DNA of 64,000 nt from an uncultured Clostridia bacterium. Its GTDB lineage: Bacteria > Bacillota > Clostridia > TANB77 > CAG-508. The stretch lies in assembly GCA_934157035.1 (NCBI GenBank), contig CAKPHG010000004.1, positions 53,594 to 117,593 of the forward strand, in the 5' to 3' direction. Below, piece after piece: positions 5,880 to 57,360 of this stretch. The notes under the pieces were generated by a model, which had not been told where the DNA came from, made no database searches, and saw only the letters and a program-made list of their open reading frames with translations. Position 1 is the first letter of the stretch. Every line of letters starts with the position of its first letter. The position numbers and the translations under genes were made by a program.

Positions 5880-5951
5880 ACACTTATCTCCTTATTCTTT
5901 TGTTTTTATAATTTTACCAACACTATTTTTAAAAGTCAATATTTTTTAAAG

Positions 5952-6977
5952 TTATTGAATAAACATTGCATCTCCAAAACTAAAGAAATGATATCTTTCT
6001 TCTACTGCATGTTTATAAGCACTCATTATATATTCTTTTCCTGCTAACGCTGAAACTAACATTATTAATGTTGATTCTGGTAAATGAAAATTAGTAATTA
6101 AGCAATCTATACATTTAAATTTATAGCCTGGATATATAAATATGCTAGTGTCTCCCTCTGTTTCTTTTACAAAACCATTCTCATCTGCTACTGATTCTAG
6201 TACCCTACAAGATGTTGTTCCTACTGCTATTATTCTTCCTCCATTTTTCTTTGTATTGTTTATTTTTTCTGCATCTTCGTGTTTTATATAATAATGTTCA
6301 CTATGCATATCATGTTCTTCTATATTTTCTACTTTTACTGGTCTAAATGTTCCTATTCCAACATGAAGTGTTACATTAGCAATCTCAACACCTTTTTCTT
6401 TTATTTTTTCCAATAGTTCTTCTGTAAAATGAAGTCCTGCTGTAGGTGCTGCTGCTGAACCTTCATATTTAGCATATACTGTTTGATATCTAGATTTATC
6501 TTCTAGCTTTTCTTTTATATATGGTGGAAGTGGCATTAAACCAATTTGATCTAATATTTCATTAAATATTCCATCGTACTCAAATTTTACCTTTCTATTT
6601 CCGCCTTCCATCATTTCTAAAATTTCTGCTTTAAGTAATCCATCACCAAAAATGACTTTTGTTCCTATTTTTAGTCTTCTTCCTGGATGTACCATTACCT
6701 CCCATATATCTCCTTCTATTCTTTTTAATAATAGAAATTCTATATGTACTCCAGTTTCTTCTTTTATTCCATATAATCTTGCTGGTATTACTTTAGTGTT
6801 ATTTCTAACTAAGCAATCTCCAGGTTGTAAGTAATCTAATATATCTTTAAATATTTTATCTTCTATTGTTTTATTTTTTCTATCTAATACCATTAATCTT
6901 GCTGCACTTCTATCTTTTATTGGTACTTGTGCAATTAACTCTTGTGGTAATTCATAATCAAAGTCTGATACTTTCAT
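5952..6977 (-). CDS. queA: S-adenosylmethionine:tRNA ribosyltransferase-isomerase
   Basis: [18 protein letters not shown]-terminus and full-length QueA-like sequence. Confidence 0.92.
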
Positions 6978-25777: not shown

Positions 25778-27100
25778 TTAGCCTTTCTCTAATATTCTTT
25801 TTTCCTTTTGTGTTTCCGTAACACTATTACTTAATACTATAGTTCCAACAATAGATATAATTATAAATATAAAAATTATTTTCAAATTATTCAAATTGTG
25901 TGAAAATCCAACAAATATTAATAACAAAGTATAACCTAATATTCTTCCAATATTTAAAAATAATTCTCTATATAAAAAATACTCTGTATTGTATTTATCT
26001 TTATATTCCTTCTTATTAGAATAATTAAATAAATTGACTTCTGTAATTTTTAATATAATATTCATAAAAATGTAATAACTGATATTGTATAAAATAATAG
26101 AATTCATATTTATATTGTTCATTACTAAAGCAAAAGTAATAAAAAGAAATCCTAAAGAAAAACCTAATATAATCTTTTTATGTTTTTCCTTATAAAATTT
26201 AGCAAATATATACATTGTTAAAATAGAGCATAATGAAAGTAATGATGATATCCAACCTAATTCAAATTCATTCTTTGTATTATATATAATTAATAACGAT
26301 ACAACTAAACTCATAACTCCATATCTATTTATGCCTTTTAAAAATTCAATAGCATACAATTTTTTTAATGTTTTATCCTCTTTCAATTTATTAGCAAATT
26401 CTTTTACTTTTATATTTGATGTTTGTATATTTTTATTTTTTATATTAAAAGTATTTAAAATTTTAATAATTGAAAATATTAATATTAAAATTGCAGCTAC
26501 TTGATATGATTTTAAAGTTATATAAGCACCTAATATTATAGGAACAACAAAACTTATTATTTCTGTAAAAACAGAAACTAATCCTATGTATTTTGTTCTT
26601 TCTTTTTGCAGAATACTTTCTGACTCCATCATATTTAATGGAAATCCTGTAGTCGCTGTAGAAATACCATACATTATCCCAATTATATATACAAAATTAA
26701 TTATTTTATCTCCCATTACAATTATCATAAAAATATATAAAGCTTTTATAATAGTTCCAAATCTATATAATTTAATTTTATCTTTCTTTTTTATATAGTT
26801 AGCAACAATAAATGCACCTATTGTTGCTACTATCCATCCAACTATATTATAAATTGATAAATATAAAATATTTTGTTCCGTAATTTTATAAAAGTATGCT
26901 GCTAAAAATACATCTAAAAATATACTTATAACTTTTCCTATTGTTTGATCTACAATGAGTGTTTTAGCAGGTTTAGAAAGTCTATTACTTTGTTTTTTAT
27001 TAATATTACCTGTGTTTTTTAATTCTTTATCGTGTTCTACATATTCTTTCAATAATTCTTCATTAAAATTTGATGTTACATTATCTATTCCCATTTTCAT
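25778..27100 (-). CDS. MFS-type transporter whose first ~35 codons derive from a 5'(3')-deoxyribonucleotidase gene
   Basis: 12-TM MFS-like body. N-terminus MKMGIDNVTSNFNEELLKEYVEHDKELKNTG matches N-termini of dNT genes at 54834..56264 and 32049..32636. AAGGAG RBS before ATG 27100. Confidence 0.75.
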   Translation of the reverse strand: MKMGIDNVTSNFNEELLKEYVEHDKELKNTGNINKKQSNRLSKPAKTLIVDQTIGKVISIFLDVFLAAYFYKITEQNILYLSIYNIVGWIVATIGAFIVANYIKKKDKIKLYRFGTIIKALYIFMIIVMGDKIINFVYIIGIMYGISTATTGFPLNMMESESILQKERTKYIGLVSVFTEIISFVVPIILGAYITLKSYQVAAILILIFSIIKILNTFNIKNKNIQTSNIKVKEFANKLKEDKTLKKLYAIEFLKGINRYGVMSLVVSLLIIYNTKNEFELGWISSLLSLCSILTMYIFAKFYKEKHKKIILGFSLGFLFITFALVMNNINMNSIILYNISYYIFMNIILKITEVNLFNYSNKKEYKDKYNTEYFLYRELFLNIGRILGYTLLLIFVGFSHNLNNLKIIFIFIIISIVGTIVLSNSVTETQKEKRILEKG

Positions 27101-27168
27101 TAATTGCTCCTTATTATTCACCATTTATATCTACTATCATATCATATTAATATAAATAAGAAAAGAAG

Positions 27169-27210
27169 AATAAGGACATTTGGGGACGGGGCTCTTTTGT
27201 TCTTTACATA
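27169..27210. repeat. degenerate copy of the GGGAC-core/AATGTCCTT repeat family, abutting the stop of MFS gene 27214..28419
   Basis: Reverse complement TTATGTAAAGAACAAAAGAGCCCCGTCCCCAAATGTCCTTATT is ~85 % identical to 33447..33490. Confidence 0.7.
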
Positions 27211-27213
27211 ACT

Positions 27214-28419
27214 TCATTCTTTTTTACTTACAAAATAAATTCCTAGTGTTATATATGATAATATTGCTAAACCAAAAGTAATTTTTATAACATTATCATT
27301 TTCAGACAAAACTGTATATGATAGTATTGGCAAAATCGCTGTTACAATTCCTTCTATAAATCTTTCAAAAGTAACATATGATGTCTGTAATTTATCTTTT
27401 GAAGCCTCATATATAGCAACATTATCAAATATTTCATAAGCTCCATTCCCCATTCCTAGTAATAAATAAATTATTGGTAATATATATATTAATATTTCAT
27501 TTGATGCAATAAATAAACTTGAAAAAGCAAATATAAATATCATACACATTGGTAAAATAACCTTTTTCCAATTCCTACTATTTGCTTTTCTTGACCAAAA
27601 CTTACTTGATACTGCTTCAGATAAATTTATTATGATATTTAACAAACTATAATAAATATAATTTATATTTAAATATCTAAGTAAGAAAACATTTAAATAC
27701 ATTATACCTATTCCATTTGCAAATCTATTTATTCCACATGTTATAATTATCTTTCTAAATTTTTTATCTGTTGCTGGAATTTTTATTGTATCCTTTATGG
27801 TTATTTTATCTTCTTTTATAGGTGGTTTGTATGTATTAATTCTTATTGTTATATCTATAAATGCAATTAAAAATACAATTGAAAATAAAATCATAAATCC
27901 GTATAACTCATACCCATTTTGTGTGAATCTATCAAGAGTAATTCCCATAATTAAGCTAAATAATAAAACTATGGTATTTTTATACATATTTTTCGTTGCT
28001 GCAAACTTAGTTCTGTCTTCTTTTTTTAATAAAGACATTCTCCAATTAACAAAAGTTATATATCCCATCTCTCCTGTAATTGCATATATTGAAGCAAATA
28101 TAAAGAACAATATAGTTCGTATGTTTACATCTCTTGATATAAACGGAATAATTGCGAAGCATACTGATGCCAGTCTGTATATTGAATAATTTGTTAATAC
28201 AACTTTTTTTGATTGTCCTATTCGTGAAAACAATGGTGCTGCAAATATTTGTAAAACATTCGTTATTGTATCTAAAACAGCATAAATTCCAATTGCCAAG
28301 TCTGATAAACCTAAATATACAGCAAAAGCTGATATAAACGATGTGCTAGCTATTTTATTGTTTGCATTATCTAGTACTGATGAAGTTAAGTATTTTTGGT
28401 ATTCCTTTTTATAGTTCAT
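27214..28419 (-). CDS. MFS transporter
   Basis: 401 aa, 12 predicted TM helices, MFS-like organisation. Confidence 0.8.
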   Translation of the reverse strand: MNYKKEYQKYLTSSVLDNANNKIASTSFISAFAVYLGLSDLAIGIYAVLDTITNVLQIFAAPLFSRIGQSKKVVLTNYSIYRLASVCFAIIPFISRDVNIRTILFFIFASIYAITGEMGYITFVNWRMSLLKKEDRTKFAATKNMYKNTIVLLFSLIMGITLDRFTQNGYELYGFMILFSIVFLIAFIDITIRINTYKPPIKEDKITIKDTIKIPATDKKFRKIIITCGINRFANGIGIMYLNVFLLRYLNINYIYYSLLNIIINLSEAVSSKFWSRKANSRNWKKVILPMCMIFIFAFSSLFIASNEILIYILPIIYLLLGMGNGAYEIFDNVAIYEASKDKLQTSYVTFERFIEGIVTAILPILSYTVLSENDNVIKITFGLAILSYITLGIYFVSKKE

Positions 28420-28427
28420 TTTTTCTC

Positions 28428-29240
28428 CTATTCTATTTCTAACTTTTCATTGCAAAAATGTAATTTATCTATAATATCTTGTCCTATATGTTTATTTGCA
28501 ATTTCTACAGCTTTTTCACAGTTCATAATTTGATATTTAAAGTGAGCATCTACTCCATATAATACCTTTAAATTTTTATACTCTGAAGCTATTTTCCAAA
28601 ATTCTTTACAAGGATACACTATACTTTCTCTTTTTCCTATTATACATTCATTAGGATGAGATAAATTAATTTCTATTGGTATTCCATATTTTTCTGCTGT
28701 ACTACAAATTATGTGTGCAACTTTTTCATCTACTTTTCTAAAATTTTGTCTACTTAGCATATATATATCAGGATGTGCTATTATATCTGGTATGTTTTTT
28801 TCAATCGCTATTTTTACATATTCCGCATATTTTAAAGCATCATCATCAGTAAATTCTTGTCTTCTTAAAATTTTAATATCATTATTTTCATCATATATAA
28901 AATGCTGTCCCAGAATTATCTTATCTGATTCATTTTTTATTTCAAATAAGTTTTCCTCTTGTCCTGGTAAATATTCAACTTCAAAACCAGTCTCTATTTC
29001 TATTTTATCTTTATACTTTTCTTTTAAAGATTTTATACTATTTAAATATTCATTTTTTTCACTATATTTCATTCTCATATTTTTTCTATAATCTATTTCT
29101 TCTTTTTCAGGGCAATGGTCCGTAAATGCTATCTTTGTAAAACCCTTTTGAATAAATAGTTTTACAAAATCTTCATCTGTCATATTATTATCAGCATGTC
29201 CACATCTTCTTGTATGTGTATGGTAGTTAAATTTTTGCAC
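28428..29240 (-). CDS. PHP-domain phosphoesterase, histidinol-phosphatase (HisJ) family
   Basis: NYHTHTRRCGHA N-terminal metal-binding motif and further PHP His/Asp motifs. Confidence 0.75.
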   Translation of the reverse strand: MQKFNYHTHTRRCGHADNNMTDEDFVKLFIQKGFTKIAFTDHCPEKEEIDYRKNMRMKYSEKNEYLNSIKSLKEKYKDKIEIETGFEVEYLPGQEENLFEIKNESDKIILGQHFIYDENNDIKILRRQEFTDDDALKYAEYVKIAIEKNIPDIIAHPDIYMLSRQNFRKVDEKVAHIICSTAEKYGIPIEINLSHPNECIIGKRESIVYPCKEFWKIASEYKNLKVLYGVDAHFKYQIMNCEKAVEIANKHIGQDIIDKLHFCNEKLEIE

Positions 29241-29254
29241 AATTTCTCTCCTTT

Positions 29255-29857
29255 CTACAATTTCTTTTCATATATAAACGCTTTTTCAGTATATCCGTTT
29301 CCAAGTTGTCCTATTTCTTTGTTTTCAACTATTGTTTCATATACTTTTTTACATCCTAAATTTTCATAAAATTTATAATTACATGATTCATCTGTCATTA
29401 TTTGAAGATTTTTCATATTATCTTTTTTTGCAAGTTCAAATACTTCTAATAATAATTTTTTACCTATTTTCTTACCTCTATAATCTTCATCCACTATTAG
29501 TATAGAAACCTCTCCATCAAAATAATTTTTTAATTTCTCTGGAATGTAATTATAATTATTTTCATATTCTTTAAATGCTTCTAAATTTTTTATACTTTTG
29601 CTTTTGTACAATTTATTTTTTACAAGTTCATAAAACTTTTTAGATGCTACATGTTTACTTGAATTTTCTTTTGAATAACCACAAAATCCTATAAGTTTGT
29701 TTCCTTCTTTATATTTTATTATCTTTTCACTTTCTTGTAAAATATCTAATAAATATATCCAAGCACAAATATCATTATCTGCTCCTGCTTCTTTTTTTCC
29801 TAAATTCCATTCTTTACTCAGTATTTTTACAGCTTGTTTCATTTCATTGTAATTCAT
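29255..29857 (-). CDS. GNAT-family N-acetyltransferase
   Basis: Acetyl-CoA binding motif ILIVDEDYRGKKIGKKLL. Confidence 0.75.
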   Translation of the reverse strand: MNYNEMKQAVKILSKEWNLGKKEAGADNDICAWIYLLDILQESEKIIKYKEGNKLIGFCGYSKENSSKHVASKKFYELVKNKLYKSKSIKNLEAFKEYENNYNYIPEKLKNYFDGEVSILIVDEDYRGKKIGKKLLLEVFELAKKDNMKNLQIMTDESCNYKFYENLGCKKVYETIVENKEIGQLGNGYTEKAFIYEKKL

Positions 29858-29958
29858 CTATTTTTCCCTTCTCTCATGAAAATATGATTCATTTTGCCAA
29901 AAATAATTATTTTTTGAAATTTTTATTATTTTTCCTTTCTATATTTCTTAATAAAAAA

Positions 29959-30873
29959 CTACTTCAAAAACTCATCATCTATTATTACTTTACTATTTTC
30001 TATTTTTACATTTACTCCAATTGGAATTATACTATTAACAATTTTATGACCAAAATCATTACATTTAATAATTGGAAAACTATATTCTTTAGTATATTCA
30101 AGCAATATATCTTCCATTTGTGGATATATATTGCCATCTTTTTTTAAATCATAATTATATCCAATTACAATACCGTTTATTTTATCAAATATACCATATT
30201 GTTTTAAATGAGCAAATCTTCTTTGACACTCATTTGGTGATGTTTCATAACTCTCGATAAATAAAATATTATGGTCAATACTTGGTAAATATTCTGTTCC
30301 AAGTAGGTACATCATACAACCTAAATTTGTTCCAATAATTTTTCCTGAAGAAATGCCATTTCTTATAACTTCTTTATTTTCATTATTAAATTTATCTAAC
30401 TTTTTATTTATAAAAGCATCTTCAAATACTTTATACTGTTCTTTAGAATTTGTGTCTCCAAATGATATAAAATTTGGTCCACTAAATGTAATTAATCCTG
30501 TTTTTTTATAAATCGTTTGAAGTAATACTGTTATATCGCTATACCCAACTAATATTTTAGGATGCTTTTTTATTTCTTCATAATCTAATAAATCTATAAA
30601 TGTATTGCATGTTTGTCCACCTTCTAAACATATTATTGCTTTTACTTCGTCATCTAAGAACATATTCATAAGATCTTCTGCTTTTTGTTTTCTTGTTCCA
30701 CAAGAGCCATAGTAATCTTCTTCTACATATTTTCCAAATTTGATTTTAAAATTTTTGCTTTCCAAAAATTGCTTTGCATTAGCAAAGTCATTATACCTAT
30801 TATTTAAAGCTAAACTATTTGATACCCCTACTATTCCAATAGTATCTCCATAATTTAATTTATCCGCTAACAT
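29959..30873 (-). CDS. LD-carboxypeptidase (peptidase S66; LdcA/MccF-like)
   Basis: GYSDITVL nucleophile-elbow motif and S66-like architecture. Confidence 0.8.
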   Translation of the reverse strand: MLADKLNYGDTIGIVGVSNSLALNNRYNDFANAKQFLESKNFKIKFGKYVEEDYYGSCGTRKQKAEDLMNMFLDDEVKAIICLEGGQTCNTFIDLLDYEEIKKHPKILVGYSDITVLLQTIYKKTGLITFSGPNFISFGDTNSKEQYKVFEDAFINKKLDKFNNENKEVIRNGISSGKIIGTNLGCMMYLLGTEYLPSIDHNILFIESYETSPNECQRRFAHLKQYGIFDKINGIVIGYNYDLKKDGNIYPQMEDILLEYTKEYSFPIIKCNDFGHKIVNSIIPIGVNVKIENSKVIIDDEFLK

Positions 30874-32045
30874 AGTTTCTCCCTTTTTCTTAAATATATC
30901 ATATAATAAGCTAAACTTATTTGGAATATCATAAATAAAGCAGATAAGCCAAACATATATCGTAATCCTTTTTCATACATTAGACCACACAAAAATACTC
31001 CTATTGCCTCTCCTAAAAATCTAATTATATGACATACATTTGAAAAACTTAATTGATATTTATTTTCTAATCTATTAATGTATACAGCATCACAAATATT
31101 TTCGTATGCTGTTGAAATAAATATTGACCAGGTAATTGCAATTAATGTAATTGCTATATTATTTGATACAAATGCTACTATATATCCTAAAAATCTTATT
31201 CCAAATTTTATAGTTACTGTTAGATAATCATTTTTAGGTGTTAAATATTTTAATGCTATAATTCCAAATATGTCTGCTAAAAGACCAATTACTAATAAAT
31301 AATTTGTTGCTACATTATCGCTAAAATTAAAATAATTTGTTAATGTTAGCATTTTTAATCCAAGTGCTGTTGACATTGCAATAGTTCCTATTAAAGTATA
31401 AAACAAATATAATATTAAAATTTTATCTTTAAAAATATATTTTGAAGATATTTCTTTATGTTCATTATTATTTTCTAAGTTATTTACTTTTATATTAAGC
31501 AATATAAATAGTGAAAACATTAAGAATAAATTTGCTATAAATAAGCAAACATTATAATTTATAAGCAATCCTGCAATACTTTTGCCTATAAATACTCCAC
31601 CAAATAAAATTCCAACATCTCTAAATAAATACTCTGTTAATCTTCTTTTGCTATAGATTGTTCCAGTTTTTACTATTGTAGTTATTAATGGATATATACT
31701 TGTGATTATTATGTATTCTGTTACAATATCTATTATTATCGATAATTTAATTTTTCCTACATAGCTTGTACTATTTAAGAAACATAACCAAAACATATTT
31801 ATAAATTTTATTAATATAACTATAACTAATACACTCTTTAGTCTATCTATCTTTACATATTTTCCAATCAATCCAATAATTACAACGCTTATTAAAGTTC
31901 CTATACTTAATATACTACTTATATTTGTAACAGCAAAATTATTATCTTGTAACCATAGTTGTCTAAAGTTTCCCCATAATCCAACTGATATGCTGAAAAA
32001 TGCTAACATTATTAGTATTTGATTTTCATTTTTTATTTTTTTCAT
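30867..32045 (-). CDS. MFS transporter
   Basis: 392 aa, 12 TM; overlaps upstream gene by 7 nt. Confidence 0.8.
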   Translation of the reverse strand: MKKIKNENQILIMLAFFSISVGLWGNFRQLWLQDNNFAVTNISSILSIGTLISVVIIGLIGKYVKIDRLKSVLVIVILIKFINMFWLCFLNSTSYVGKIKLSIIIDIVTEYIIITSIYPLITTIVKTGTIYSKRRLTEYLFRDVGILFGGVFIGKSIAGLLINYNVCLFIANLFLMFSLFILLNIKVNNLENNNEHKEISSKYIFKDKILILYLFYTLIGTIAMSTALGLKMLTLTNYFNFSDNVATNYLLVIGLLADIFGIIALKYLTPKNDYLTVTIKFGIRFLGYIVAFVSNNIAITLIAITWSIFISTAYENICDAVYINRLENKYQLSFSNVCHIIRFLGEAIGVFLCGLMYEKGLRYMFGLSALFMIFQISLAYYMIYLRKREKLC

Positions 32046-32048
32046 TTG

Positions 32049-32636
32049 TTACTCCATTTCATTTATGTAACTATATATTTCATTCCAATTTTTTAATTGT
32101 TTAATTTTATCATAATTATAAATTTCGTTAGTTATCATAATTGTTTGTATTCCAACATTTTGAACACCTAGACAATTATTAAGTTGGTCATCTATAAATA
32201 AATCAATTTTTTCATTTTTACATACAGATGATTTTTCTCTAGCGTTTACTATTAATTTATCATAATAAATTTCATTTTTATCCAGCCAATCTTTACTTAA
32301 TTTATATGGATCGTCATGAAATTCTGAATCTCTGGCTGTAATAATATATATTTCATGTCCCTCTTTTTTTAATTTATCTATTACTTCTTTTGCGTTTTCT
32401 CTTGGAGTTGCATTATTAGTAATATTTTCTTGAATATTTTTTAAGAAATATTTTAATTCCTCATATTCAAATTGAAACTTTTTTCTATATGTATCTCCAT
32501 TGTTTTTTATATCTTCCATTGGATTATCATAATTATCAATTTTCTTTCCTAAACTAATTGCATATTCAAATGCTGCTTTATTTAGTTCTTCTTGCACTTC
32601 AGTTAATGTATTGTCTATATCAATTCCTATTCTCAT
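32049..32636 (-). CDS. HAD-superfamily 5'(3')-deoxyribonucleotidase (NT5C-like), standalone copy
   Basis: MRIGIDIDNTL (DxD HAD motif I) and NT5C-like motifs; GGAGG RBS before ATG 32636. Confidence 0.8.
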   Translation of the reverse strand: MRIGIDIDNTLTEVQEELNKAAFEYAISLGKKIDNYDNPMEDIKNNGDTYRKKFQFEYEELKYFLKNIQENITNNATPRENAKEVIDKLKKEGHEIYIITARDSEFHDDPYKLSKDWLDKNEIYYDKLIVNAREKSSVCKNEKIDLFIDDQLNNCLGVQNVGIQTIMITNEIYNYDKIKQLKNWNEIYSYINEME

Positions 32637-33327
32637 TTTTTCCTCCATATTCATCATATATTTTTCCATCAGTAATTAAAAAATTTTCAACTGTATTTTT
32701 TATCTTTTCAATTTCATATCCATCTGCATTACAAATATTCCAGCCTCTTTTTTGTGCTGGAATCAAATTTTCCATTACATCATCTATAAATAAAATATTT
32801 GTTGGTTCAATTTTACAATCATTTTCTACTTTAATGTATATTTCTTCTTTTGGCTTTTTACATTCCATTTCAAAAGATAGCCAAACATAATCAAATTTTG
32901 ATAAATTGTAATGTTTATCTATTCTGTTTTTATCTAAAATGGATAAATTAGATAAAATTCCTATTTTGCATTTATCTTTTAAACTATGTGCAAATTTAAC
33001 AACATCTTTATAGTATTCAATTTTATCAAATTTTTCTTGATACATAGCATAAAATTCATCATAATTACATTGTATTCCAAATGATTTTTTTATTCGTTCA
33101 AACCATTTTTGTATATCTTCTTTTTTATATATTTCTGAAATACATTTATTATTTTCATCATGATTGCATTCATTCCATTTTTTTGTTATTGCATTTTCAC
33201 TTAATTTATTCTCAATCAAACTCTTTATTATATCTGTTCTTGCATTAAAAACGTTATATTCTCCTTCTCTGTGACTTTCTACTACTCCACCCCAGTCAAA
33301 AATTACTATCTTATTTTTATCTCTCAT
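32620..33327 (-). CDS. HAD-family hydrolase
   Basis: IVIFDWGGVV motif I; HAD-like sequence; GAGGAG RBS before ATG 33327. Confidence 0.65.
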   Translation of the reverse strand: MRDKNKIVIFDWGGVVESHREGEYNVFNARTDIIKSLIENKLSENAITKKWNECNHDENNKCISEIYKKEDIQKWFERIKKSFGIQCNYDEFYAMYQEKFDKIEYYKDVVKFAHSLKDKCKIGILSNLSILDKNRIDKHYNLSKFDYVWLSFEMECKKPKEEIYIKVENDCKIEPTNILFIDDVMENLIPAQKRGWNICNADGYEIEKIKNTVENFLITDGKIYDEYGGKNENRN

Positions 33328-33446
33328 TATTTTCTCCTCTTTTACAATTTTCATTGATTTTATCATATAAAGTATTTTAAATGCAACAAAAAAATATCTA
33401 ACAAAGTATAATTCTATTAGATATTTTTTATTATATTAAATTCAAT

Positions 33447-44791: not shown

Positions 44792-44865
<74 letters not shown>

Positions 44866-44985: not shown

Positions 44986-46397
44986 TTAATTATTATCTGT
45001 TAATTTATTAAACAAATCCTTAAATATTTCGTTTGCATTTAAATAATTAACAAATTTAATTCTATGCCTGTTTTCGGTTAGTTTAAAAGTATTATCAGTA
45101 TTTATAAGTGGACAACTAACATCCATTGTATTAAACCAATTTTTATTTATCATATATGCTATTACACTAATATCCCATAGTGGCCATCTTTTAGTAGGAC
45201 CATAGGCTCTATTATAAAATCTATAGCATAAATAATCACATAATTCGTTTTTGCCTTTTAATTCACTTTCTAATTCGTATATTGATGTCATTAGATTCGA
45301 TGTTATAGGAGAACAAGGCATAACAGTAAGTTTAACTTTCGATTCAAAAACTACTTTTACCGCTTCTACATCTTGATCAAAATTGAAATCTTTATTAGGT
45401 CCAAATAAAAAATTACTTCCTAACCATATAATTTCTATCTTATCAACAATATCTGGGTTAGATTTTAATGCTAATGCTATATTTGTTAAACACCCTATTG
45501 CTAATATATATGTTTTTTTATTTTTGTTAGCAATTTCAATTATTTTATTAATGGCTGAATTTTTTTCATTATATCCATTTTTTAAATAATCACGGGAACC
45601 TTTATATATAAGTGATTTATCCTTTAATCCTAATAAATCAAATACTTTACATGCTTCATTGTAACTGGCATCTATAGAATCAGAAACTGTTCCTTGCCAT
45701 TTTTCATGTCTAAAAGGTGCTATTGTTATAGCGTCAATGTTGAATATTTCTTTGCTTTTTAGTAAATAAGATAATGCGAATTGGTCATCTGCTTCATTAT
45801 ATGTATCTGTATTCAAAATTACATTATATTTTTTTCACAGATTAAACTATATATTTCTTTCCATCCGTTTACTATTGGAATATTTAAATTATATTTCTCA
45901 TTATATCTTGTTTTCATTAAAAAACATTCTATTCCTGCGTTTAATATGTATTTACATTTATCTGCTTCATCATCAAACATAATATCAATACTATTTTCAA
46001 TACATTCTGGACTTTTATCTCTGCTTTTTGTAAATACTAATTTATCATATTTTATACCTTTTTCATTTAACCAATTTATAGTTACTAATTCATGGTTTTT
46101 AAAAAAATAATTTGATCTGTGTGTTATTAAAAATATCTCATTTTCTTCATATAATTTATTAATATATTTCTTAGCTCCTTCTATTAAATCAAATTTTTCA
46201 GCCATTCTATCCATATTATTGCGGATAAAATCTTCTATTTCCTCTGGGCTCCAATCAAACATTCCTTCAGTAATGTGTTTAGCTTTTTTGTTTATAATTC
46301 CTTTATTTCTTTTATTTTTATCTTCTTTTTCAAATTCTTCTAAAAATGTTTTATCTAAATCTGCTATTACATTATCAATATCTATTCCAATTCTCAT
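44986..46397 (-). pseudogene. 5'(3')-deoxyribonucleotidase-nucleoside hydrolase fusion gene interrupted by a -1/+1 frameshift in an A7 tract (ORFs 45819..46397 and 44986..45816)
   Basis: Upstream ORF = HAD dNT (MRIGIDIDNV...). Downstream ORF = IU-nucleoside hydrolase starting in mid-motif (NTDTYNEADDQFAL). The intact paralog 54834..56264 reads through the same junction (…KNYKKEKFNVILDTDTYNECDD). The shifted frame across plus 45829..45835 (T7) reconstructs KKYNVILNTDTYNE. Confidence 0.7.
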
Positions 46398-46695: not shown

Positions 46696-47748
46696 ATGCA
46701 ATATCAAGAAAGCGTCAGAATTCAAAGATGTGGTAACCGTGCAGGAGATACCTATGGACTGATTGAACTTCAACATATGGCAGATCCTAAATCAGTAATT
46801 GTGTCTCTTTGTGGGCAAAGGCTTTATCCGAAAAAATTCAATATCTTCGGTTGGCCGATATTTACAAAGGAAATCTGTGACCTTTTTGACTGGAAAGAGA
46901 ACTCTCTTGAAAGAATATATGGAAAAGATTACAGACTTACAGCATTAGTTACGTATGATAGTGCAAATGTCCACATCGACCCGCATGCAGTTAATTCTTT
47001 GGATGGAATTAAAAACGGAATCAAAGACCTTGAGTCTTTGAATAGATTACTCAGAGATAGAGTGATTTATGATAAGCTTTTAGGTAGGGGCAAACTCAAC
47101 AAGTATGTTATTTTTGGTAGATATAGCCTTGATGAATTTGCCCAGGTATGGACACTGGGTGAGCAATATGAAATCCCTGAAATGCCTATCGTTTGTACTC
47201 AAATCGGGTTCTATAGAGCTTACAATAAAGTAAAGCCTGATGCACTTGTATCTTGGGAAGGCAGATGCACTATTCCTTCTGAAGATGATAGTTGTCCTTG
47301 GTGTACCAAAAAATTTACTATTGAAGATGTAAGAAAAGGAAGATTTGACACTATCAATGGTAAAGTCGCCCATAGCGAATGTGCAAAGCAGTATGAACAT
47401 GAAAGGGAGATTAACAAAATTATTCATCGAATTATGGAATTTATCTATGAAGATGGATTAACCTTTGAACTTCTTCCTAATGGCTATTGTAGTCAACCGT
47501 GTTATGCTCATAAGCCTTGGTTTTTGTGTCATACTCCTGATGGTGACATCGAAATCGGCTGGAGAAAAAGAGTTATTTCTATTGAATGGAAAGATAATTT
47601 CAAACCTTTCGATATGAGTATTTTTGACAGCGAAGATGTTACTAAATGGGAGCGTGGCATTCACGCGTGGGGAAATGACAAAGCATATGAGTATATTAAA
47701 AAGGTAAAGGAATTTGTTAATCCTAAACCTGAAGAGAAAAAATCGTAA
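46696..47748 (+). CDS. hypothetical 350-aa protein, compositionally foreign (~40 % GC), with CxxC...HxxC putative zinc-binding element
   Basis: Strong AAGGAGG RBS; GC visibly higher than flanks; CPWC(x29)HSEC and further conserved Cys/His; no family recognised; own GC-rich hairpin terminator. Confidence 0.6.
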   Translation: MQYQESVRIQRCGNRAGDTYGLIELQHMADPKSVIVSLCGQRLYPKKFNIFGWPIFTKEICDLFDWKENSLERIYGKDYRLTALVTYDSANVHIDPHAVNSLDGIKNGIKDLESLNRLLRDRVIYDKLLGRGKLNKYVIFGRYSLDEFAQVWTLGEQYEIPEMPIVCTQIGFYRAYNKVKPDALVSWEGRCTIPSEDDSCPWCTKKFTIEDVRKGRFDTINGKVAHSECAKQYEHEREINKIIHRIMEFIYEDGLTFELLPNGYCSQPCYAHKPWFLCHTPDGDIEIGWRKRVISIEWKDNFKPFDMSIFDSEDVTKWERGIHAWGNDKAYEYIKKVKEFVNPKPEEKKS

Positions 47749-47868: not shown

Positions 47869-48420
47869 TCACCTATTTTCATAATTTCGAATGCTAATTT
47901 CTTTTATCATTTCTCCTGGATAATCATATAATGCTAATCTATCAAATTCTAAATAGAATGGCTTAAAACTATCCTTAATTGTGTTTTTCAATTCTAAAAT
48001 CTTATCATAATCTTTATCTATATGTAGAGTTAAATGAAACGTAAATTTCTCTGGATTATATTTTTCTTTTGGAAATTTATTAAAAAAGATTCTTTGTAAT
48101 TCTTTTATTTTCTCATTATCTTCTATTGCTAAATATAAAACAAAACTCTCATTTCTACATTTCATTATCTTAACATCATTTACTTTAACCTTTATCTTAC
48201 CCATCTCTATTTTTTGAGCTATATTTATTATTTCATTTTCATTTTCTTTGTTAGTTGCAAAAATAGTAAAGTGATATGGTAAATTATCAATATTGTATCT
48301 ATTCTCATCAATACCATAAGGAACTTTGCAAGTCTTTATTTGTATATTGTTCATTAACTTTTCTATCTTATTTAATTCTGTTTTATTCATAAAACTTATC
48401 ATCGTAATTCTCTTACTCAT
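47869..48420 (-). CDS. 2H phosphoesterase superfamily protein (LigT/ThpR-like 2'-5' RNA ligase / cyclic phosphodiesterase)
   Basis: Two HxT/S motifs: PYHFTIFAT and FHLTLHID, spaced ~80 aa apart in a ~180-aa protein. Confidence 0.65.
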   Translation of the reverse strand: MSKRITMISFMNKTELNKIEKLMNNIQIKTCKVPYGIDENRYNIDNLPYHFTIFATNKENENEIINIAQKIEMGKIKVKVNDVKIMKCRNESFVLYLAIEDNEKIKELQRIFFNKFPKEKYNPEKFTFHLTLHIDKDYDKILELKNTIKDSFKPFYLEFDRLALYDYPGEMIKEISIRNYENR

Positions 48421-48795: not shown

Positions 48796-49996
48796 TTATG
48801 GTTTTTCTAGTTTATACATTATTCTAGCATATATAGGTATAGAAATAGTAACTATCAATAATAATAATTTAAAGTATATAACATTATTCAACAAGCCTAC
48901 CAATAGCATTAGTATAAATCCTATTATTCTTCCTATTTCCATAAAACCTTCTGTGAAAGTATGATATTCTACTAACCATTTTTCTATATTATTTTCTTTA
49001 ACTGCATCATCTGATTTAATTTTAAACATAACTTCTAAAATATATACAGTTATGCTATATGTAAAATTATAAATTATTAATGTTGTTTTGCTTATATTTA
49101 ATATTAATCCTAATACACCTAACACTACTAATGTAGCACAAAAAATCAATAATCTTTTTGCATATTTTTTTTTGATATAATTTATTAAATAAATATAGTG
49201 ATATCATAGAAAATATAGAGAATATAGTTGTTAATATTCCAAAATTAAATGATGTTTTAAAAGTCATAATTGTTATTATAACTACTAATACTCGTATTGT
49301 ATCCATCATAATTCCATATAAAAAGGCTAATTTATAAACTTTATTTATATTCTCTTTTTGTTTGCTAGATAAACTGGTTGTATATTTTTTTAAACTATAT
49401 TTTTGAATTTTATCGTCAATAACAAATTTGTTAGTATCTATTTGTAATGACATTATTATTTGGAATAAAGTTAATACAAATATATATATTGCTATGTTTC
49501 CAAAAGATGTTAATTCTATAGAGGTTCCTAATATTATAGGAACTAATATATTGATAAATTTACTTAAAATTCTTTTTGTTGTCATATATTTTTTTCGGTT
49601 TTCATTATCGACTATTTGTGTATTCATTACATCATGTGTTGACTAGTATAAAGCTTCTGCAATGCCATAAAAGATTGCAAAAATTATAAAATATTGACTT
49701 ATTTTATCTTTGAACAATACTATTAATAATATATAAATCGATTTGATTATAATACCAAATCGATAAATTGAAACTTTTTTTTTAGGTTTGCTTTTGATTA
49801 TATTACCTAATAAAATACTTCCTACACCTAATAGTAAATATAAAATTATATAAAATGTTGAAACTTGTATTATATTTTCATTAGAAATTTGTAAAAAATA
49901 TGCTACTAAAAAAGTTTCGCCAAATAAATTTATAATACCGTTGGTTAGGTCACATGCCATTAATGACTTTGCACTTCTATCTAATTTAGTTTTCAT
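48796..49996 (-). pseudogene. MFS transporter pseudogene broken into three frames (49643..49996, 49067..49627, 48796..49149); paralog of 25778..27100
   Basis: Fragments align consecutively to the intact MFS (e.g. KKVSIYRFGIIIKSIYILLIVLFKDKI vs KIKLYRFGTIIKALYIFMIIVMGDKI); frames switch and overlap. Confidence 0.7.
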
Positions 49997-53689: not shown

Positions 53690-54298
53690 TTACAAGTTTT
53701 CTTTTATTTCTGGAAATAAATCATATAAATTATATCCTAATAAATTATCAAAGTATTCTTTTAATTTATATGTTTCCTTTACATGATATTGTGTATTTGA
53801 ATATGCACCTCTTCTAATGATAATATCAATTAATCTTTTATCTATTGTATATACCTTTTGACCTTGAGGACACATTAAGTCACATAAGTTTATTATTTTT
53901 TCTTCTATTGTATATTTATGATTTTTTATAAAGTCTGTCAAAAATGGATTATCTTCTGGTTTTGGACCTCCCCCTGCAGTGCAAGTAATATCATTATTTA
54001 AATATGAATGTGTTAGGCATATATTACAATATTCCTCATCATACCCTTTGTCTTTTAAATAATTATATCCTCTCATAACATGTCCTTGTGATTCCCCATT
54101 ATATTTTCCTATATCGTGCACATAACCTAAAGCTATTGTTTTATCAACATCTACTTTATATCCTTTTTCTTCTAACGCTTTAGCAATTCTTCCAGCACTA
54201 TTTCCAACATATAAACAATGTTCTATCCATCTATCGTCTTTTGTATATTTTCTTTCCTCTTCTAATAAATTTCTTGCTCCTTCACTTGTTAATTTCAT
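53690..54298 (-). CDS. HD-domain phosphohydrolase
   Basis: H...HD metal-binding pattern (IEHCLYV...YVHDIGK); 4-nt overlap with upstream gene. Confidence 0.7.
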   Translation of the reverse strand: MKLTSEGARNLLEEERKYTKDDRWIEHCLYVGNSAGRIAKALEEKGYKVDVDKTIALGYVHDIGKYNGESQGHVMRGYNYLKDKGYDEEYCNICLTHSYLNNDITCTAGGGPKPEDNPFLTDFIKNHKYTIEEKIINLCDLMCPQGQKVYTIDKRLIDIIIRRGAYSNTQYHVKETYKLKEYFDNLLGYNLYDLFPEIKENL

Positions 54299-54831
54299 AG
54301 TTCATACTCCTTTATTTCACAATTTTCTTGACCGCTCACATTTAGTAACATCCCATCTTCTGGCATTTTTTCAAAATAAAATTGCATAGCCCTTGCTACT
54401 GCTCCATGAGTAACTAGTAAAATATTTTTATTATAATATTTTTCTTTTATATCATTTAAAAACGAATGAGTCCTTTTAAATAAATCTGGCAATGTCTCCA
54501 AACCTTCAACAATGTTTTTTGAATAATAGTTATAATACTCTTTAAAATAATAATCATCAATAATTGTATTAGTCAATATTCCTCCATCTCTTTCGATAAG
54601 CCTGTCATCATAAATTACTGGAATATTGTTTGCATTTATTATTTTACATGTATGCTTTGTTCTTTTCATTGGTGAACATATAATTAAATCTATATTCAAT
54701 TCCTTAATTTTTCCTCTTATATTTTCAGCTTGTTTTATTCCAATCTCATTTATATCTTCATTATATCTACAATTATATTTATTTTCTTTATTGCAATTCG
54801 TTTGTCCGTGTCTTACTATATATATCTTCAT
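54295..54831 (-). CDS. histidine phosphatase family (PGAM/CobC-like) protein
   Basis: MKIYIVRHGQTNCN = RHG catalytic motif; second His region VTHGAVARA. Confidence 0.75.
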   Translation of the reverse strand: MKIYIVRHGQTNCNKENKYNCRYNEDINEIGIKQAENIRGKIKELNIDLIICSPMKRTKHTCKIINANNIPVIYDDRLIERDGGILTNTIIDDYYFKEYYNYYSKNIVEGLETLPDLFKRTHSFLNDIKEKYYNKNILLVTHGAVARAMQFYFEKMPEDGMLLNVSGQENCEIKEYEL

Positions 54832-54833
54832 AC

Positions 54834-56264
54834 TTACTCTCCTAATTTTTCAAATAAATCATTATAAACACTATTTGCATCTATATAAGTTACCATTGTT
54901 ATATTATGCCTATTAGTTGTTATTTTATATGATGTATCTTCTTTTATATTTGGACAATTTATATCTTTACTTGTAAACCATTTTTTATTTATCATATAAG
55001 CAATTACAGAAATATCCCATATAATTCTTCTTTCTTGATTTCCATGATAGCTATCGTTATAAAATCTACTTATTAAATAGTTGCATAGTTCACTTTTATC
55101 TTTCAAGTGATGATTTAATTCATATATTGATGTTCGTAAATTAGATGCTACATTTTTGCAAGGTATTACTGTTAATTTTACTTTAGACTCAAATACTGTT
55201 CTTACTGCTTCAACATCTTGTCTAAAATTGAATTCTCTATTATTATCTTGTAATAAGCTATGTCCGCCTAGCCAAATTACTTCTATTTTTTCAATTATTT
55301 TAGGCTCTTTCTTTATTGCTAGCGCAATATTCGTAATTGCCCCAACTGCTAATATATATGTTTTTTCATTTTTTAATGCTATTTCAATTATTTTATTAAC
55401 CGCTTCATTTTCTTCATTATATCCATTTTGCAAATAATCTGTTGAACCTTTAAATACTTTATCTGTTGTATCAAAATTTAACCAATTACATATTTTTAAT
55501 ATTTCATTATAGCTTAATTCTTGGCTTTCCTCAGTAGTCACATTTTTTACTTTATGCGAAAATGGTGCAACTGTAATTGCTTCTATATTAAATACATCTT
55601 GTGATTTTAACATATATGAAAGTGCAAATTGATCGTCACATTCGTTATATGTATCTGTATCTAAAATTACATTGAACTTTTCTTTTTTATAATTTTTAAT
55701 GTACTCATATATTTCTTTCCAATCTTTAACTCTAGTTAAGTTTTCTTCTTCTCTATTGTAAGGCTTGTCCTTTATAAGTGTAGTTATTCCGCTTTCTACA
55801 CAATTTTTACAAATGCTAATTGAATCATCTATCATTACTTCTATATTATTTTCAATACATTTTTTAGATTTTTGCATTTTGTCACGAGCATCTGTAAAAA
55901 TTAGTTTATCATAATATATATTATTTTCTTGTAGCCATTCTTTTGTCATATTATAAGGATCTGAATAATCTCCATTATCTCTTCCAGTAATTATATATAT
56001 GTTATGACCATCTTCTTTTAGTTTATCTATATATTCTTTTGCTCCTTCAATTACTTTTAAGTTTTTAACGATTCTTTCTATATTTTCTTTATAAAATGTT
56101 TCATCTTCCTCTTTGCTCCAGTCAAACATACCATTTCTGATATATTTAGCATTTGGATTTATTATTCCACTATTTCTTAATTCTTTATCATGTTCTATAT
56201 ATTCCTTTAATAGTTCTTCATCAAAATTTGAAATAACGTTATCTATATCTATTCCTATGTTCAT
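54834..56264 (-). CDS. intact fusion: N-terminal HAD 5'(3')-deoxyribonucleotidase + C-terminal inosine-uridine-type nucleoside hydrolase
   Basis: N-term MNIGIDIDNV (HAD motif I), NT5C-like body; C-term ILDTDTYNECDDQFAL (nucleoside hydrolase DxDxxxDD Ca2+ motif) and IUNH-like remainder. 3 nt from next gene (operon). Confidence 0.8.
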   Translation of the reverse strand: MNIGIDIDNVISNFDEELLKEYIEHDKELRNSGIINPNAKYIRNGMFDWSKEEDETFYKENIERIVKNLKVIEGAKEYIDKLKEDGHNIYIITGRDNGDYSDPYNMTKEWLQENNIYYDKLIFTDARDKMQKSKKCIENNIEVMIDDSISICKNCVESGITTLIKDKPYNREEENLTRVKDWKEIYEYIKNYKKEKFNVILDTDTYNECDDQFALSYMLKSQDVFNIEAITVAPFSHKVKNVTTEESQELSYNEILKICNWLNFDTTDKVFKGSTDYLQNGYNEENEAVNKIIEIALKNEKTYILAVGAITNIALAIKKEPKIIEKIEVIWLGGHSLLQDNNREFNFRQDVEAVRTVFESKVKLTVIPCKNVASNLRTSIYELNHHLKDKSELCNYLISRFYNDSYHGNQERRIIWDISVIAYMINKKWFTSKDINCPNIKEDTSYKITTNRHNITMVTYIDANSVYNDLFEKLGE

Positions 56265-56331
56265 ATTTCTTCTCCTATTTTATTTTTCTAATCCTTTATA
56301 CTTCTTCTTAAACAGAAGTAGCATAGTATAA

Positions 56332-57132
56332 TTATTTTTGGTGAATATCTACTTGTGTGTATGGTATTGTAATATTATTTTCATCTAATGTCACTTTTAC
56401 AGTTCTTAGGGCATATCTTTTTACTGGTAATCTTACTTCTGGAGAGCACCATATAATTATTCTGTAATTTACTGCTGAATCTGCAAATTGATTTATTCCT
56501 ACATATTTAACTTTTTTTACATTTTCATTTTCTTTTATTTTTTCAACAATTACATCAATAATCTTTTCAATTTTTTCTGTTTTTTCTTCATATTGAGCTG
56601 GTACATCTATTATCAATTCATCTGATGATTTTAGTGCCTGTCCAATGTTTCTGTTCGCAATAATTAATACATTTTCATTATTAACATCTTGCAATTTTGT
56701 TGTTTTTACACCTAATTCAATTACTTTTCCTTCAAAATCTCCTATTTTTATTACATCTCCGACTGAATAATAGTTATCTACTATTATATTAAATCCCATT
56801 ATAATGTCTTTCAATGCATCTTGAAGTGCTAAACCTGCTATTACAGAGGCTACTCCTAATCCTGCTATAATTGAACTTACATTAACTCCGAATAGTTGTA
56901 ATATAAATAAAATTGCAATTATTATTATTAAATAGTTTATTATATTTTTGGTAAGTTTTATGTATGTTATTTCTTTTTTATTATGTACTTTCTGATTTGT
57001 TTCTATCTTTTTTATTGCTTTATTAAAGATTTTGTCTTTTATTTTTAGTATTATTACTGCTATAACTATTGTTAATATCATAACTAATATATGTTCTTGC
57101 ATTAAAAATTCTTTTATTTTTTCTATATCCAT
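56332..57132 (-). CDS. mscS: small-conductance mechanosensitive channel (MscS family)
   Basis: 3 TM + MscS beta-domain signature. Confidence 0.85.
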   Translation of the reverse strand: MDIEKIKEFLMQEHILVMILTIVIAVIILKIKDKIFNKAIKKIETNQKVHNKKEITYIKLTKNIINYLIIIIAILFILQLFGVNVSSIIAGLGVASVIAGLALQDALKDIIMGFNIIVDNYYSVGDVIKIGDFEGKVIELGVKTTKLQDVNNENVLIIANRNIGQALKSSDELIIDVPAQYEEKTEKIEKIIDVIVEKIKENENVKKVKYVGINQFADSAVNYRIIIWCSPEVRLPVKRYALRTVKVTLDENNITIPYTQVDIHQK

Positions 57133-57258
57133 ATTTCACCTCTTAAAATATTTGTTAATAGTATATCAATATTGTTTTGTTTTTTCAATGATTTCCATAA
57201 ATAAAAAATCTTACACCAAATAGTGTAAGATTTTATTCAAATAATATTTTGAGATAAT

Positions 57259-57285
57259 AAAAAAAGTCGAGTTATTCGACTTTTT
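57259..57285 (-). terminator. terminator hairpin after tRNA-Gly (AAAAAGTCGA-gtta-TCGACTTTTT)
   Basis: Perfect stem flanked by A/T runs immediately 3' of the tRNA. Confidence 0.7.
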
Positions 57286-57286
57286 A

Positions 57287-57360
<74 letters not shown>

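Follow-up and report, generated by a model that had tools for sequence, protein, structure and literature searches.

Why would a bacterium encode a nucleotide phosphatase-like domain and a nucleoside hydrolase-like domain in a single polypeptide, and which enzymes accompany it? The question is raised by a 64,000-nucleotide stretch of DNA from an uncultured Clostridia bacterium (contig CAKPHG010000004.1, positions 53,594 to 117,593), referred to here as the window, which has a G+C content of ~26% across its whole length. Three genes follow one another on its minus strand. The first (54834..56264) encodes a 476-aa fusion of an N-terminal NT5C-like HAD phosphatase domain and a C-terminal inosine–uridine (IU)-type nucleoside hydrolase (NH) domain, as judged from its open reading frame (ORF), Pfam and an AlphaFold2 (AF2) model; the second (54295..54831) encodes a 178-aa phosphatase of the His_Phos_1 family (phosphoglycerate mutase (PGAM)-type, with an RHG motif; Pfam); and the third (53690..54298) encodes a 202-aa HDIG-type HD phosphohydrolase (ORF and Pfam). 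The stop codon of the fusion gene and the start of the His_Phos_1 gene are spaced by 2 nt, and the His_Phos_1 and HD genes overlap by 4 nt (ATGA), which bears out the three abutting ORFs of a preliminary description of this DNA. Our favoured answer, to which we assign a probability of roughly one half, is that the fusion works in the cytoplasm as a bifunctional enzyme and breaks down ribonucleoside monophosphates, with the HD protein performing an upstream step, for nucleotide recycling.

Both halves of the 476-aa protein are recognised by Pfam: NT5C at residues 3–189 with 40.4 bits (cutoff 24.8) and IU_nuc_hydro at residues 199–465 with 99 bits (cutoff 34.2), the latter match spanning positions 1–294 of the 297 in the model. 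With both scores above cutoff and the catalytic residues intact, the presence of NT5C and IU-type NH domains in one polypeptide, as first described, stands; the motifs MNIGIDIDNV and DTDTYNECDDQFAL are both found in the ORF. The same check with profile hidden Markov models agrees with the identities given earlier to the other two proteins. The His_Phos_1 superfamily is matched with 117.6 bits, the RHG motif lying at residues 7–9, and the HD protein matches PF01966 with 42.6 bits (cutoff 22) and the HDIG profile TIGR00277 with 32.2 bits (cutoff 27.6). The AF2 model of the fusion has a predicted local distance difference test (pLDDT) score of 90.2 and a predicted template modelling (pTM) score of 0.70, which gives moderate confidence only in the arrangement of the two domains. 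A signal peptide is absent from the fusion, and HAD motif I is already reached at residue 6. All NCBIfam equivalog scores of the fusion, His_Phos_1 and HD proteins fall below their cutoffs, as do those of the metallo-β-lactamase (MBL)-fold partner, transporters and GNATs described below; judged by these scores, both halves of the fusion appear to be divergent members of their superfamilies.

The NH domain (residues 196–476; 54837..55679), delimited by alignment and Foldseek, belongs to the IU-NH family (PF01156) by profile and fold: the C-terminal half of the model matches RihA, YeiK, ZmNRh, RihC and CfIU-NH with template modelling scores of 0.7–0.77 at ~19% identity. In NHs, the Ca2+ ligands are three Asp residues and the carbonyl of a Thr or Ile (PMC8910321). 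Conservation of such residues was judged on two alignments, one of fusions diverged to 29% identity and one of 48 sequences. D202, D204, N207, E208, D210, D211, N312, N346 and D417 are invariant in both; E344 is invariant in the 29%-identity alignment, and in the 48-sequence one E344 and T311 both reach at least 90% conservation. T311-N312 (within TNIA), E344-F-N346 and D417 align with the canonical Ca2+/ribose ligands of 1mas and 5tsq. The fusion shares with E. coli RihA, RihB and RihC, C. fasciculata IU-NH and T. vivax IAG-NH the fold, the Ca2+-binding Asp residues, TNIA, E-x-N and the final Asp. It differs from them in its N-terminal HAD domain and in its variant fingerprint, DxDxxNExDD. 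In this motif, identified by alignment as D202-x-D204-x-x-N207-E208-x-D210-D211 (55632..55661), the canonical DxDxxxDD spacing is widened to DxDxxxxxDD by a two-residue insertion with the invariant N207-E208, and all four Asp residues are kept.

The last Asp is preceded by His in group I NHs, by Trp in group II, which is purine-specific, and by Cys in group III (PMC8910321). Aligned to IU-NH structures, the fusion has W416-D417 at this site (55014..55019), with W416 occupying the position of His241 of CfIU-NH; the residue is F or Y in the divergent branch of fusions described below. A group I enzyme of the RihA/RihB/RihC type was considered and ruled out, because W416 replaces the His before the last Asp; the NCBIfam models for RihA, RihC and UriH score 32–60 bits against cutoffs of 382–459. 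The Trp at this position is common to T. vivax IAG-NH and suggests, by analogy, that the base may be stacked as in the purine-specific group II enzymes. W416 would correspond to the first group II Trp; a second was not found in the β3–α3 loop (about residues 270–285), where the alignment is unreliable. Because all characterised NHs are strictly ribose-specific (PMC8910321) and the residues that bind the ribose hydroxyls are kept, a ribonucleotide route is likelier than a deoxy one, and the deoxynucleotide route initially proposed for this locus is unlikely.

The HAD domain (residues 1–195; 55680..56264) is NT5C-like or class B acid phosphatase-like according to alignments and profile matches. 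Motif I is D6-x-D8 (56241..56249; alignment), motif II S/T93, motif III K132 and motif IV D146-D147. D8, R95 and K132 are invariant in both fusion alignments, D6 and D147 are invariant in the 29%-identity alignment and reach at least 90% in the other, and the catalytic motifs are also kept in standalone modules. Motifs I–IV are common to NT5C (cdN/mdN, PF06941) and AphA, of the 'DDDD' HAD group, enzymes that dephosphorylate 5′, 3′ and 2′ mononucleotides. Unlike in those proteins, the module here is N-terminal and fused to NH, GNAT or MFS domains, and a single-sequence search of the PDB with the HAD half found no close solved relative and nothing significant. Foldseek with the whole fusion model, in which NH matches dominate, likewise returned none for this half. 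A profile built from 22 fused and standalone modules, compared with solved structures, matched the class B acid phosphatase AphA best (E = 3.5e-7) and also matched, over the full length, 3bwv, a putative 5′(3′)-deoxyribonucleotidase (E = 1e-3). The term 'deoxyribonucleotidase' is a Pfam family name that says nothing of the substrate, and the profile fits the AphA 5′/3′-nucleotidases better than the NT5C structure. These matches support a predicted nucleotidase chemistry for the HAD half and not a deoxy preference, which is further disfavoured because the domain is joined to one from a strictly ribose-specific enzyme family.

A word-indexed search with the fusion gave 4558 matches, the best 120 of which are all full-length (472–610 aa) at 71–99% identity; the few named database matches carry the label 'nucleoside hydrolase'. 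In a HMMER scan of 1.84 billion representatives at 50% identity, about ten clusters span both domains, down to 31% identity, alongside many standalone relatives of each half, among which NH homologs of ~300 aa are numerous. No description of a fused or bifunctional NH–nucleotidase was found in the literature, including dedicated NH reviews. The assertion that the fusion was previously unseen thus holds for characterised examples but not for the databases, in which it is abundant (4558 matches, and 57 of the 80 genomes introduced next). The NT5C–NH architecture is uncharacterised yet widespread, and it combines two known enzyme types that otherwise act consecutively as separate enzymes.

Genomic context was analysed at 80 loci from a scan of one genome per species (loci and proteins beyond the window are cited by L and P numbers). 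All 80 lie in metagenome-assembled genomes of uncultured gut Clostridia, Bacilli or 'Tenericutes', for example Clostridium sp. CAG:452, CAG:389 and CAG:433 and Ca. Scybalousia, with human (including Hadza), rabbit, chicken, sheep and goat sources, and the fused ORF is intact (at least 440 aa) in 57. GTDB family CAG-433 falls in the order RF39 (PMC8035907), and the CAG:433 genome (L045), after which the family was apparently named, probably belongs to that order. RF39 are reduced-genome auxotrophs in which several vitamin pathways are missing (PMC6784871); contigs of 1.08–1.43 Mb that carry the HD gene fit small genomes. Carrier lineages such as RF39 are prevalent uncultured bacteria of human and animal guts with very small genomes, and their metabolism is known from annotation only. 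Among 2.9 million IMG/VR viral contigs the fusion occurs on 2, one of which holds an ordinary bacterial fusion–HD pair, and no GenBank phage carries it. As a separate observation, phage-like IMG/VR contigs of 80–250 kb (L106–L131) contain standalone NT5C-like HAD genes at 24–34% identity, none with an NH domain.

An HD homolog lies 3′ of the fusion on the same strand at 55 of the 80 loci, and at 36 of the 49 for which the sequence extends 5 kb or more downstream. The corresponding figures for His_Phos_1 are 26 of 80 and 19 of 49. Compared with the window proteins, the HD homologs have a median identity of 73%, the fusions one of 64% and the His_Phos_1 homologs one of 46%. A search with the HD family gave 2427 matches, the best 120 of which are 202–203 aa long and 81–100% identical, and in clusters from hundreds of sample blocks the HD gene always begins 3 nt after a 471-aa NT5C+NH fusion. 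The metal ligands of the HD protein are H27, H61-D62, H97 and D140; H27, H97 and D140 are invariant in its alignment, and H61-D62 is at least 90% conserved, the sole exception being a gapped partial sequence. The specific subfamily profile TIGR00295 is not reached (53 bits against 172). In fold, the HD partner is nearest to the cyclic di-AMP (c-di-AMP) phosphodiesterase PgpH and to HD-GYP domains, with pyrophosphohydrolase and nucleotidase HD structures scoring just below; against the PDB, a single-sequence search gave nothing significant and a profile search marginal matches only. It differs from PgpH (c-di-AMP) and the HD-GYP proteins (c-di-GMP) in being a soluble 202-aa single domain without seven-transmembrane or GYP features.

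In the closest relative of the window (L001, 93% identity), the fusion is followed by HD and His_Phos_1 is absent, between flanks that match those of the window (thioredoxin reductase, thioredoxin and MscS on one side, a Zn-ribbon gene and PrsW on the other). His_Phos_1 is likewise missing from L102, the fusion protein of which is 100% identical to that of the window. In DNA alignments, the His_Phos_1 gene is a precise gene-sized insertion that separates the HD gene from the fusion gene. Without the cassette, the sequence is TAAGTAT and, directly across the junction, ATGAAATT, whereas the occupied site has GTATGAA microhomology at both ends of the cassette, in the Shine–Dalgarno (SD)/start region; the junctions lie at 54829..54836 and 54295..54298 of the window, L102:5431–5436 and L001:7428–7436. 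The last codons of each cassette hold the SD for the following gene. Because His_Phos_1 is missing from L001 and L102 and its insertion is precise, we regard the fusion and HD genes as the core and the PGAM-type gene as a strain-variable cassette. The 'operon of three phosphohydrolases' is accordingly not a conserved unit, as HD is kept at 36 of 49 loci and the PGAM-type gene is optional (19 of 49). An assignment of His_Phos_1 as the alpha-ribazole phosphatase CobC was rejected, its best NCBIfam match (TIGR03162) scoring 93.4 bits against a cutoff of 162.9. Across genomes, between 0 and 7 same-strand genes separate the fusion from HD. Represented among them are GNATs and C15-peptidase-like, class A β-lactamase-like and Zn-dependent phospholipase C-like proteins, in addition to His_Phos_1, PHP, a KTI12-like P-loop protein, a small HAD phosphatase, a LigT-like 2H phosphoesterase and a LOG-family protein.

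The two halves of the fusion also occur apart. At L069 and L071, HAD and NH are separate genes with overlapping stop and start codons, the NH ORF beginning MEKINVILDTD; at L055, L056 and L059, the domains are split, with GGGAGG-N6-ATG within the 3′ end of the HAD ORF; and at L066 the order is reversed to NH, HAD, HD. Fused, split and reordered states together form a Rosetta-stone pattern, indicating functional coupling of the domains. The interdomain linker is rich in Lys encoded by A-runs (A6–A8), in which frame breaks recur: at 45829..45835 of the window, in the paralog described below, and at ~3150 of L055, ~770 of L056 and ~810 of L059.

The partner can also be replaced. In a divergent branch of fusions (28–32% identity), a gene for a 237–240-aa MBL-fold protein overlaps the 3′ end of the fusion in place of HD (L083:7472–8185, L084:7445–8167 and L085:7475–8188). 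Precomputed Pfam matches of these proteins are Anti-Pycsar_Apyc1 and Lactamase_B_2; their NCBIfam matches, all below cutoff, are to RNase Z and a 'cyclic nucleotide-degrading phosphodiesterase'. The MBL gene of L083 is followed by a NUDIX gene (L083:8187–8732), and L087 of the same branch carries HD. The 202-aa gene after the fusion at L081 (L081:7440–8048, plus strand) was examined as an HD homolog and is unrelated, with no Pfam match. Upstream of that fusion, on the opposite strand, stand three tandem 160-aa paralogs without a Pfam match (L081:4273–5872, minus strand).

The HAD module has further fusion partners. Directly 3′ of HD, L089 encodes a 352-aa fusion of an NT5C-like HAD and a GNAT (L089:5618–6676), found at the same position in L090–L093 and split in L088 into two genes (5618–6391 and 6372–6665). 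With the MFS fusions described below, this shows that the HAD domain is a promiscuous N-terminal module, joined to NH, GNAT or MFS. For the NH subfamily, P0134 (520 aa, on a 338-kb contig) fuses HD to IU_nuc_hydro of the same subfamily, with the NE-containing fingerprint NIILDTDMENEIDDKFAL; its HD domain was compared with the HD family of the window and does not belong to it (hhalign probability <1%). Other members (P0216, P0232, P0263 and P0265) are fused to SLH, to an apiosidase-like glycosidase with a collagen-binding domain, or to DUF4185. Some of these SLH-, glycosidase- or DUF4185-fused NH proteins are probably extracellular or cell-wall associated and may have non-nucleoside substrates.

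A tblastn inventory of the 64-kb window for the fusion modules found a paralog, a standalone gene and an MFS-linked remnant, and no copies beyond these and the main fusion. The paralog, first reported as a frameshifted recurrence of the fusion at 44986..46397, is recovered in both halves: an NT5C-like half of 192 aa (45819..46397, minus strand; ORF and tblastn) that ends at a stop created by the frameshift, and an NH half (44986..45834, minus strand; ORF and tblastn) whose frame is open from 45834. They are 46% (HAD) and 59% (NH) identical to the main copy. The frameshift falls in an A7 run (45829..45835); stops lie directly upstream in the NH frame, and the sole candidate start, TTG, would delete strand β1. 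As 19 contigs from independent samples share the identical split, it is real and fixed in the species rather than an assembly artefact. Its sequence suggests either a pseudogene or a gene that depends on a −1 shift at A_AAA_AAT. No ortholog above 61% was found among the fetched loci, and tblastn of the window found no HD partner at the paralog.

Upstream of the paralog lies a gene for a LigT-like 2H phosphoesterase with two HxT motifs (47869..48420, minus strand; Pfam 2_5_RNA_ligase2/LigT_PEase), the NCBIfam match of which, to RNA 2′,3′-cyclic phosphodiesterase, is below cutoff. In L024, a homolog of this gene is present as a cassette separating the fusion from HD. The 2H fold is also used by the anti-CBASS protein Acb1, a point in favour of a link to defence. 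Between the LigT-like gene and the paralog, a 350-aa ORF with several Cys pairs and no Pfam match (46696..47748, plus strand) interrupts the array; the 46–48-kb region has ~30% G+C and a reversed GC skew, and the ORF is kept here in other samples of the species. Three successive short ORFs (117, 186 and 117 aa; 48796..49996, minus strand) look like one broken MFS-like gene and resemble the type of transporter that adjoins the fusion in other genomes. Because of these three fragments, the paralogous array at 44.9–50 kb looks as if it is decaying.

The standalone NT5C-like HAD gene (32049..32669, minus strand) has a likely start at 32636, encodes 206 aa and is 41% identical to the module by tblastn with its motifs kept, in agreement with the report that the module also occurs alone. 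The same report described a captured 5′ end on an MFS gene (25778..27124, minus strand; Pfam MFS_1). The remnant is real: over 32 aa (26999..27094) it has 75% amino-acid and ~85% DNA identity to the module. It is, however, rather a decayed NT5C–MFS fusion than a capture. An intact 591-aa NT5C+MFS_1 protein (P0159) exists whose transporter half matches the protein encoded at 25778..27124, and the window gene lacks HAD residues ~35–195 through an internal deletion, retaining the transporter, while a 6-nt deletion removes half of the DxD motif and destroys it. This gene opens a same-strand array (25778..33366) of MFS (ΔHAD), MFS, PHP (HisJ-like), GNAT, S66 peptidase (LdcA/MccF-like), a 392-aa MFS-like protein, the standalone NT5C-like gene and HAD-IA. 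At L092 and L093 these gene types are clustered with the fusion and HD. The set of GNAT, S66 and MFS genes presumably resembles microcin C-type immunity sets.

For the recycling of ribonucleotides, the reading we prefer, we infer substrates, order of steps and physiological role as follows. The HD protein, translationally coupled to the fusion, most likely acts first and would turn a phosphodiester or polyphosphate nucleotide into the nucleoside monophosphate (NMP) that the fusion consumes; candidate substrates are a cyclic or linear di- or oligonucleotide, a 2′,3′- or 3′,5′-cyclic NMP, or a nucleoside tri- or diphosphate (NTP or NDP). Elsewhere this step might fall to the MBL protein, or at times to a 2H or NUDIX protein. 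In the second step, the Asp-nucleophile HAD domain would take the phosphate off a 5′-, 3′- or 2′-NMP, and in the third the Ca2+-dependent N-ribohydrolase would split the nucleoside into free base and ribose, His_Phos_1 being an accessory phosphatase cassette of some strains. The module would thus recycle products of RNA turnover or signalling nucleotides to base and ribose in small-genome, auxotrophic gut Bacilli. The stepwise logic from nucleotide to nucleoside to base, already part of the preliminary description, is plausible. Two observations speak for a recycling role: HD is extremely conserved, and the partners are of phosphodiesterase type. The fusion and fission events and the HD partner tie three uncharacterised protein families into one candidate pathway, from phosphohydrolase to nucleotidase to N-ribohydrolase; if the role is ordinary recycling, the annotation of thousands of proteins would be corrected and a bifunctional architecture missing from NH reviews would be added.

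The proposed order of reactions has precedents. In yeast, Isn1 or Sdt1 and Urh1 act in the same order, a HAD nucleotidase followed by an IU-NH-type hydrolase. LOG enzymes, the fold of which is unrelated, need a single step to convert an NMP to base and ribose-5-phosphate. A LOG cassette is present at times in the fusion arrays, and base release from NMP by the PpnN/LOG family would be a similar outcome, but with the fusion phosphate and ribose would leave separately. The order proposed here is also that of the plant HAD-type XMP phosphatase and the IU-NH-type NSH1/NSH2 (PMC8616923, PMC9464200). The plant and yeast pairs are separate, unlinked eukaryotic enzymes, whereas here a single bacterial protein, with HD as its conserved partner gene, would combine the two activities.

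Several points weigh against recycling. The substrate-specific NCBIfam equivalogs score far below cutoff. N-glycosidic bond hydrolysis by the IU-NH family needs a dimer or tetramer, NH-fold proteins that have acquired further domains may be inactive monomers (PMC8910321), and the fingerprint here contains a two-residue insertion. Among the conserved neighbours at the 80 loci there is no ribokinase, phosphoribosyltransferase or nucleoside transporter, and many neighbours (GNATs, MFS, MatE and class A β-lactamase-like proteins) are of a detoxification-like kind. With these neighbours and the fusions of the HAD to GNAT or MFS, disposal fits at least as well as nutrition; and cytoplasmic breakdown of NMPs seems wasteful for a possibly salvage-dependent organism.

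The alternative that survives best is that the same two-step chemistry serves detoxification or housecleaning, acting on toxic or non-canonical nucleotides, which we consider possible, although we would not bet on it. The targets might be activated nucleoside-analogue antibiotics of competitors or damaged or modified nucleotides, from which HD would first strip the tri- or diphosphates. The NT5C-like HAD would undo the activation, and the product would be destroyed (NH), acetylated (GNAT) or exported (MFS). The disposal role is favoured by the fusions of the HAD to NH, to GNAT (the 352-aa protein of L089–L093) and to MFS_1 (P0159 and the decayed window copy), by detoxification-like neighbours and by strain-level turnover of cassettes. 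The arrays abound in genes for GNATs, MFS/MatE transporters, class A β-lactamase-like proteins, S66 peptidases (MccF/LdcA-like) and P-loop kinase-like proteins; a paralogous array seems to be in decay, and several paralogs are found within small genomes. Organisms dependent on salvage, as the auxotrophy of RF39 (PMC6784871) suggests for these, would be especially exposed to nucleoside analogues. By contrast, an HD protein that is 81–100% identical across the best 120 clusters points to a universal substrate and not to an arms race. No gene reaches the equivalog cutoff of a resistance family, and the accessory genes are loosely associated, each occurring at no more than 11 of the 80 loci.

The modular, cassette-like array, which joins the HAD to hydrolase, acetyltransferase or transporter domains and sets it beside a highly conserved HD, is more unusual than the fusion itself and supports such a scheme. 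On this reading, possible rather than likely, the NT5C-like HAD might supply the opening reaction shared by a modular 'dephosphorylate, then dispose' toolkit against toxic or non-canonical nucleotides in salvage-dependent, reduced-genome gut Bacilli. If so, it would constitute an unrecognised resistance or housecleaning system of abundant uncultured human gut bacteria. Disposal would also show how obligate salvagers withstand nucleoside-analogue warfare in the gut, and it would yield new enzymes that inactivate nucleoside drugs.

We consider it unlikely that the NH domain is a non-catalytic riboside binder that serves recognition or regulation of the HAD. Such a role would have parallels in Sde_0182 and XopQ, which bind Ca2+ and ribose yet are inactive, a competent site requiring oligomerisation (PMC8910321). 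The weak, sub-threshold Pfam match of the domain to Sde182_NH-like, the insertion in its fingerprint and the SLH, glycosidase-like and DUF4185 fusions of its subfamily point in the same direction. However, the general base D204, the Ca2+ ligands, E-x-N and the aromatic leaving-group activator are kept down to 29% identity, the NH half exists as its own gene and so works alone, and standalone homologs of ~300 aa are numerous.

Salvage of cofactor ribosides, from nicotinamide mononucleotide (NMN) through nicotinamide riboside to nicotinamide or from alpha-ribazole phosphate through alpha-ribazole to the base, is quite unlikely. Yeast uses HAD nucleotidases and the NH Urh1 for the NMN route, and the best NCBIfam match of His_Phos_1 is CobC, but that match is below cutoff and the gene is optional. 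NH-family enzymes do take diverse ribosides (PMC8910321), and RF39 are without several vitamin pathways (PMC6784871). Genes for NAD or cobamide metabolism are not among the conserved neighbours, and the RNase Z-like MBL, LigT-like, LOG and NUDIX partners point to nucleotides.

In the PUA-Calcineurin-HAD system, a phosphoesterase and a HAD phosphatase deplete dNTPs (10.64898/2026.01.15.699771); its pairing of a metallophosphoesterase with a nucleotide-acting HAD recalls HD and the fusion, but it has a PUA sensor, a calcineurin-like fold, a separate HAD and a phage trigger, features that the fusion system is without, and it has no nucleoside hydrolase. Despite this conceptual precedent, the Anti-Pycsar_Apyc1 match of the alternative partner and the variable cassette content, an anti-phage role, whether depletion of (d)NTPs and (d)NMPs during infection, as first suggested, or degradation of cyclic-nucleotide immune signals, is very improbable: PADLOC has no match for the fusion or His_Phos_1 and a marginal Cas3-HD likeness for HD (E about 1e-3), viral collections are essentially negative, a sensor or regulatory domain is absent, the NH is predicted to be ribose-specific, the window flanks are housekeeping genes in conserved order, and most genomes of the clade carry the fusion constitutively.

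Those flanks comprise MscS, the thioredoxin system and PrsW, in an order that is conserved in the closest relative. The MscS-type mechanosensitive channel gene (56332..57132, minus strand; Pfam MS_channel domains) lies 67 nt 5′ of the fusion in the same direction and is possibly co-transcribed with it; it adjoins the fusion only in the same species and L001 and is not a conserved neighbour. No terminator-like site was found on the minus strand between 57205 and 53300 (MscS through HD), and a search for riboswitches or leaders 5′ of the operon matched tRNAs only. A consensus scan found a promoter-like site, GTGACA-17-TACAAT, ~100 nt 5′ of the fusion start (56366..56394, minus strand), which is weak, as such sites are no commoner than in shuffled sequence; the SD of the fusion gene, AGGAG, can be read at 56272..56276 (minus strand). 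A tRNA gene and two terminator-like hairpins (57205..57360, minus strand) stand directly 5′ of the MscS–fusion–HD string, and a second tRNA gene (44792..44862, plus strand) lies between the paralog and a P-type ATPase gene.

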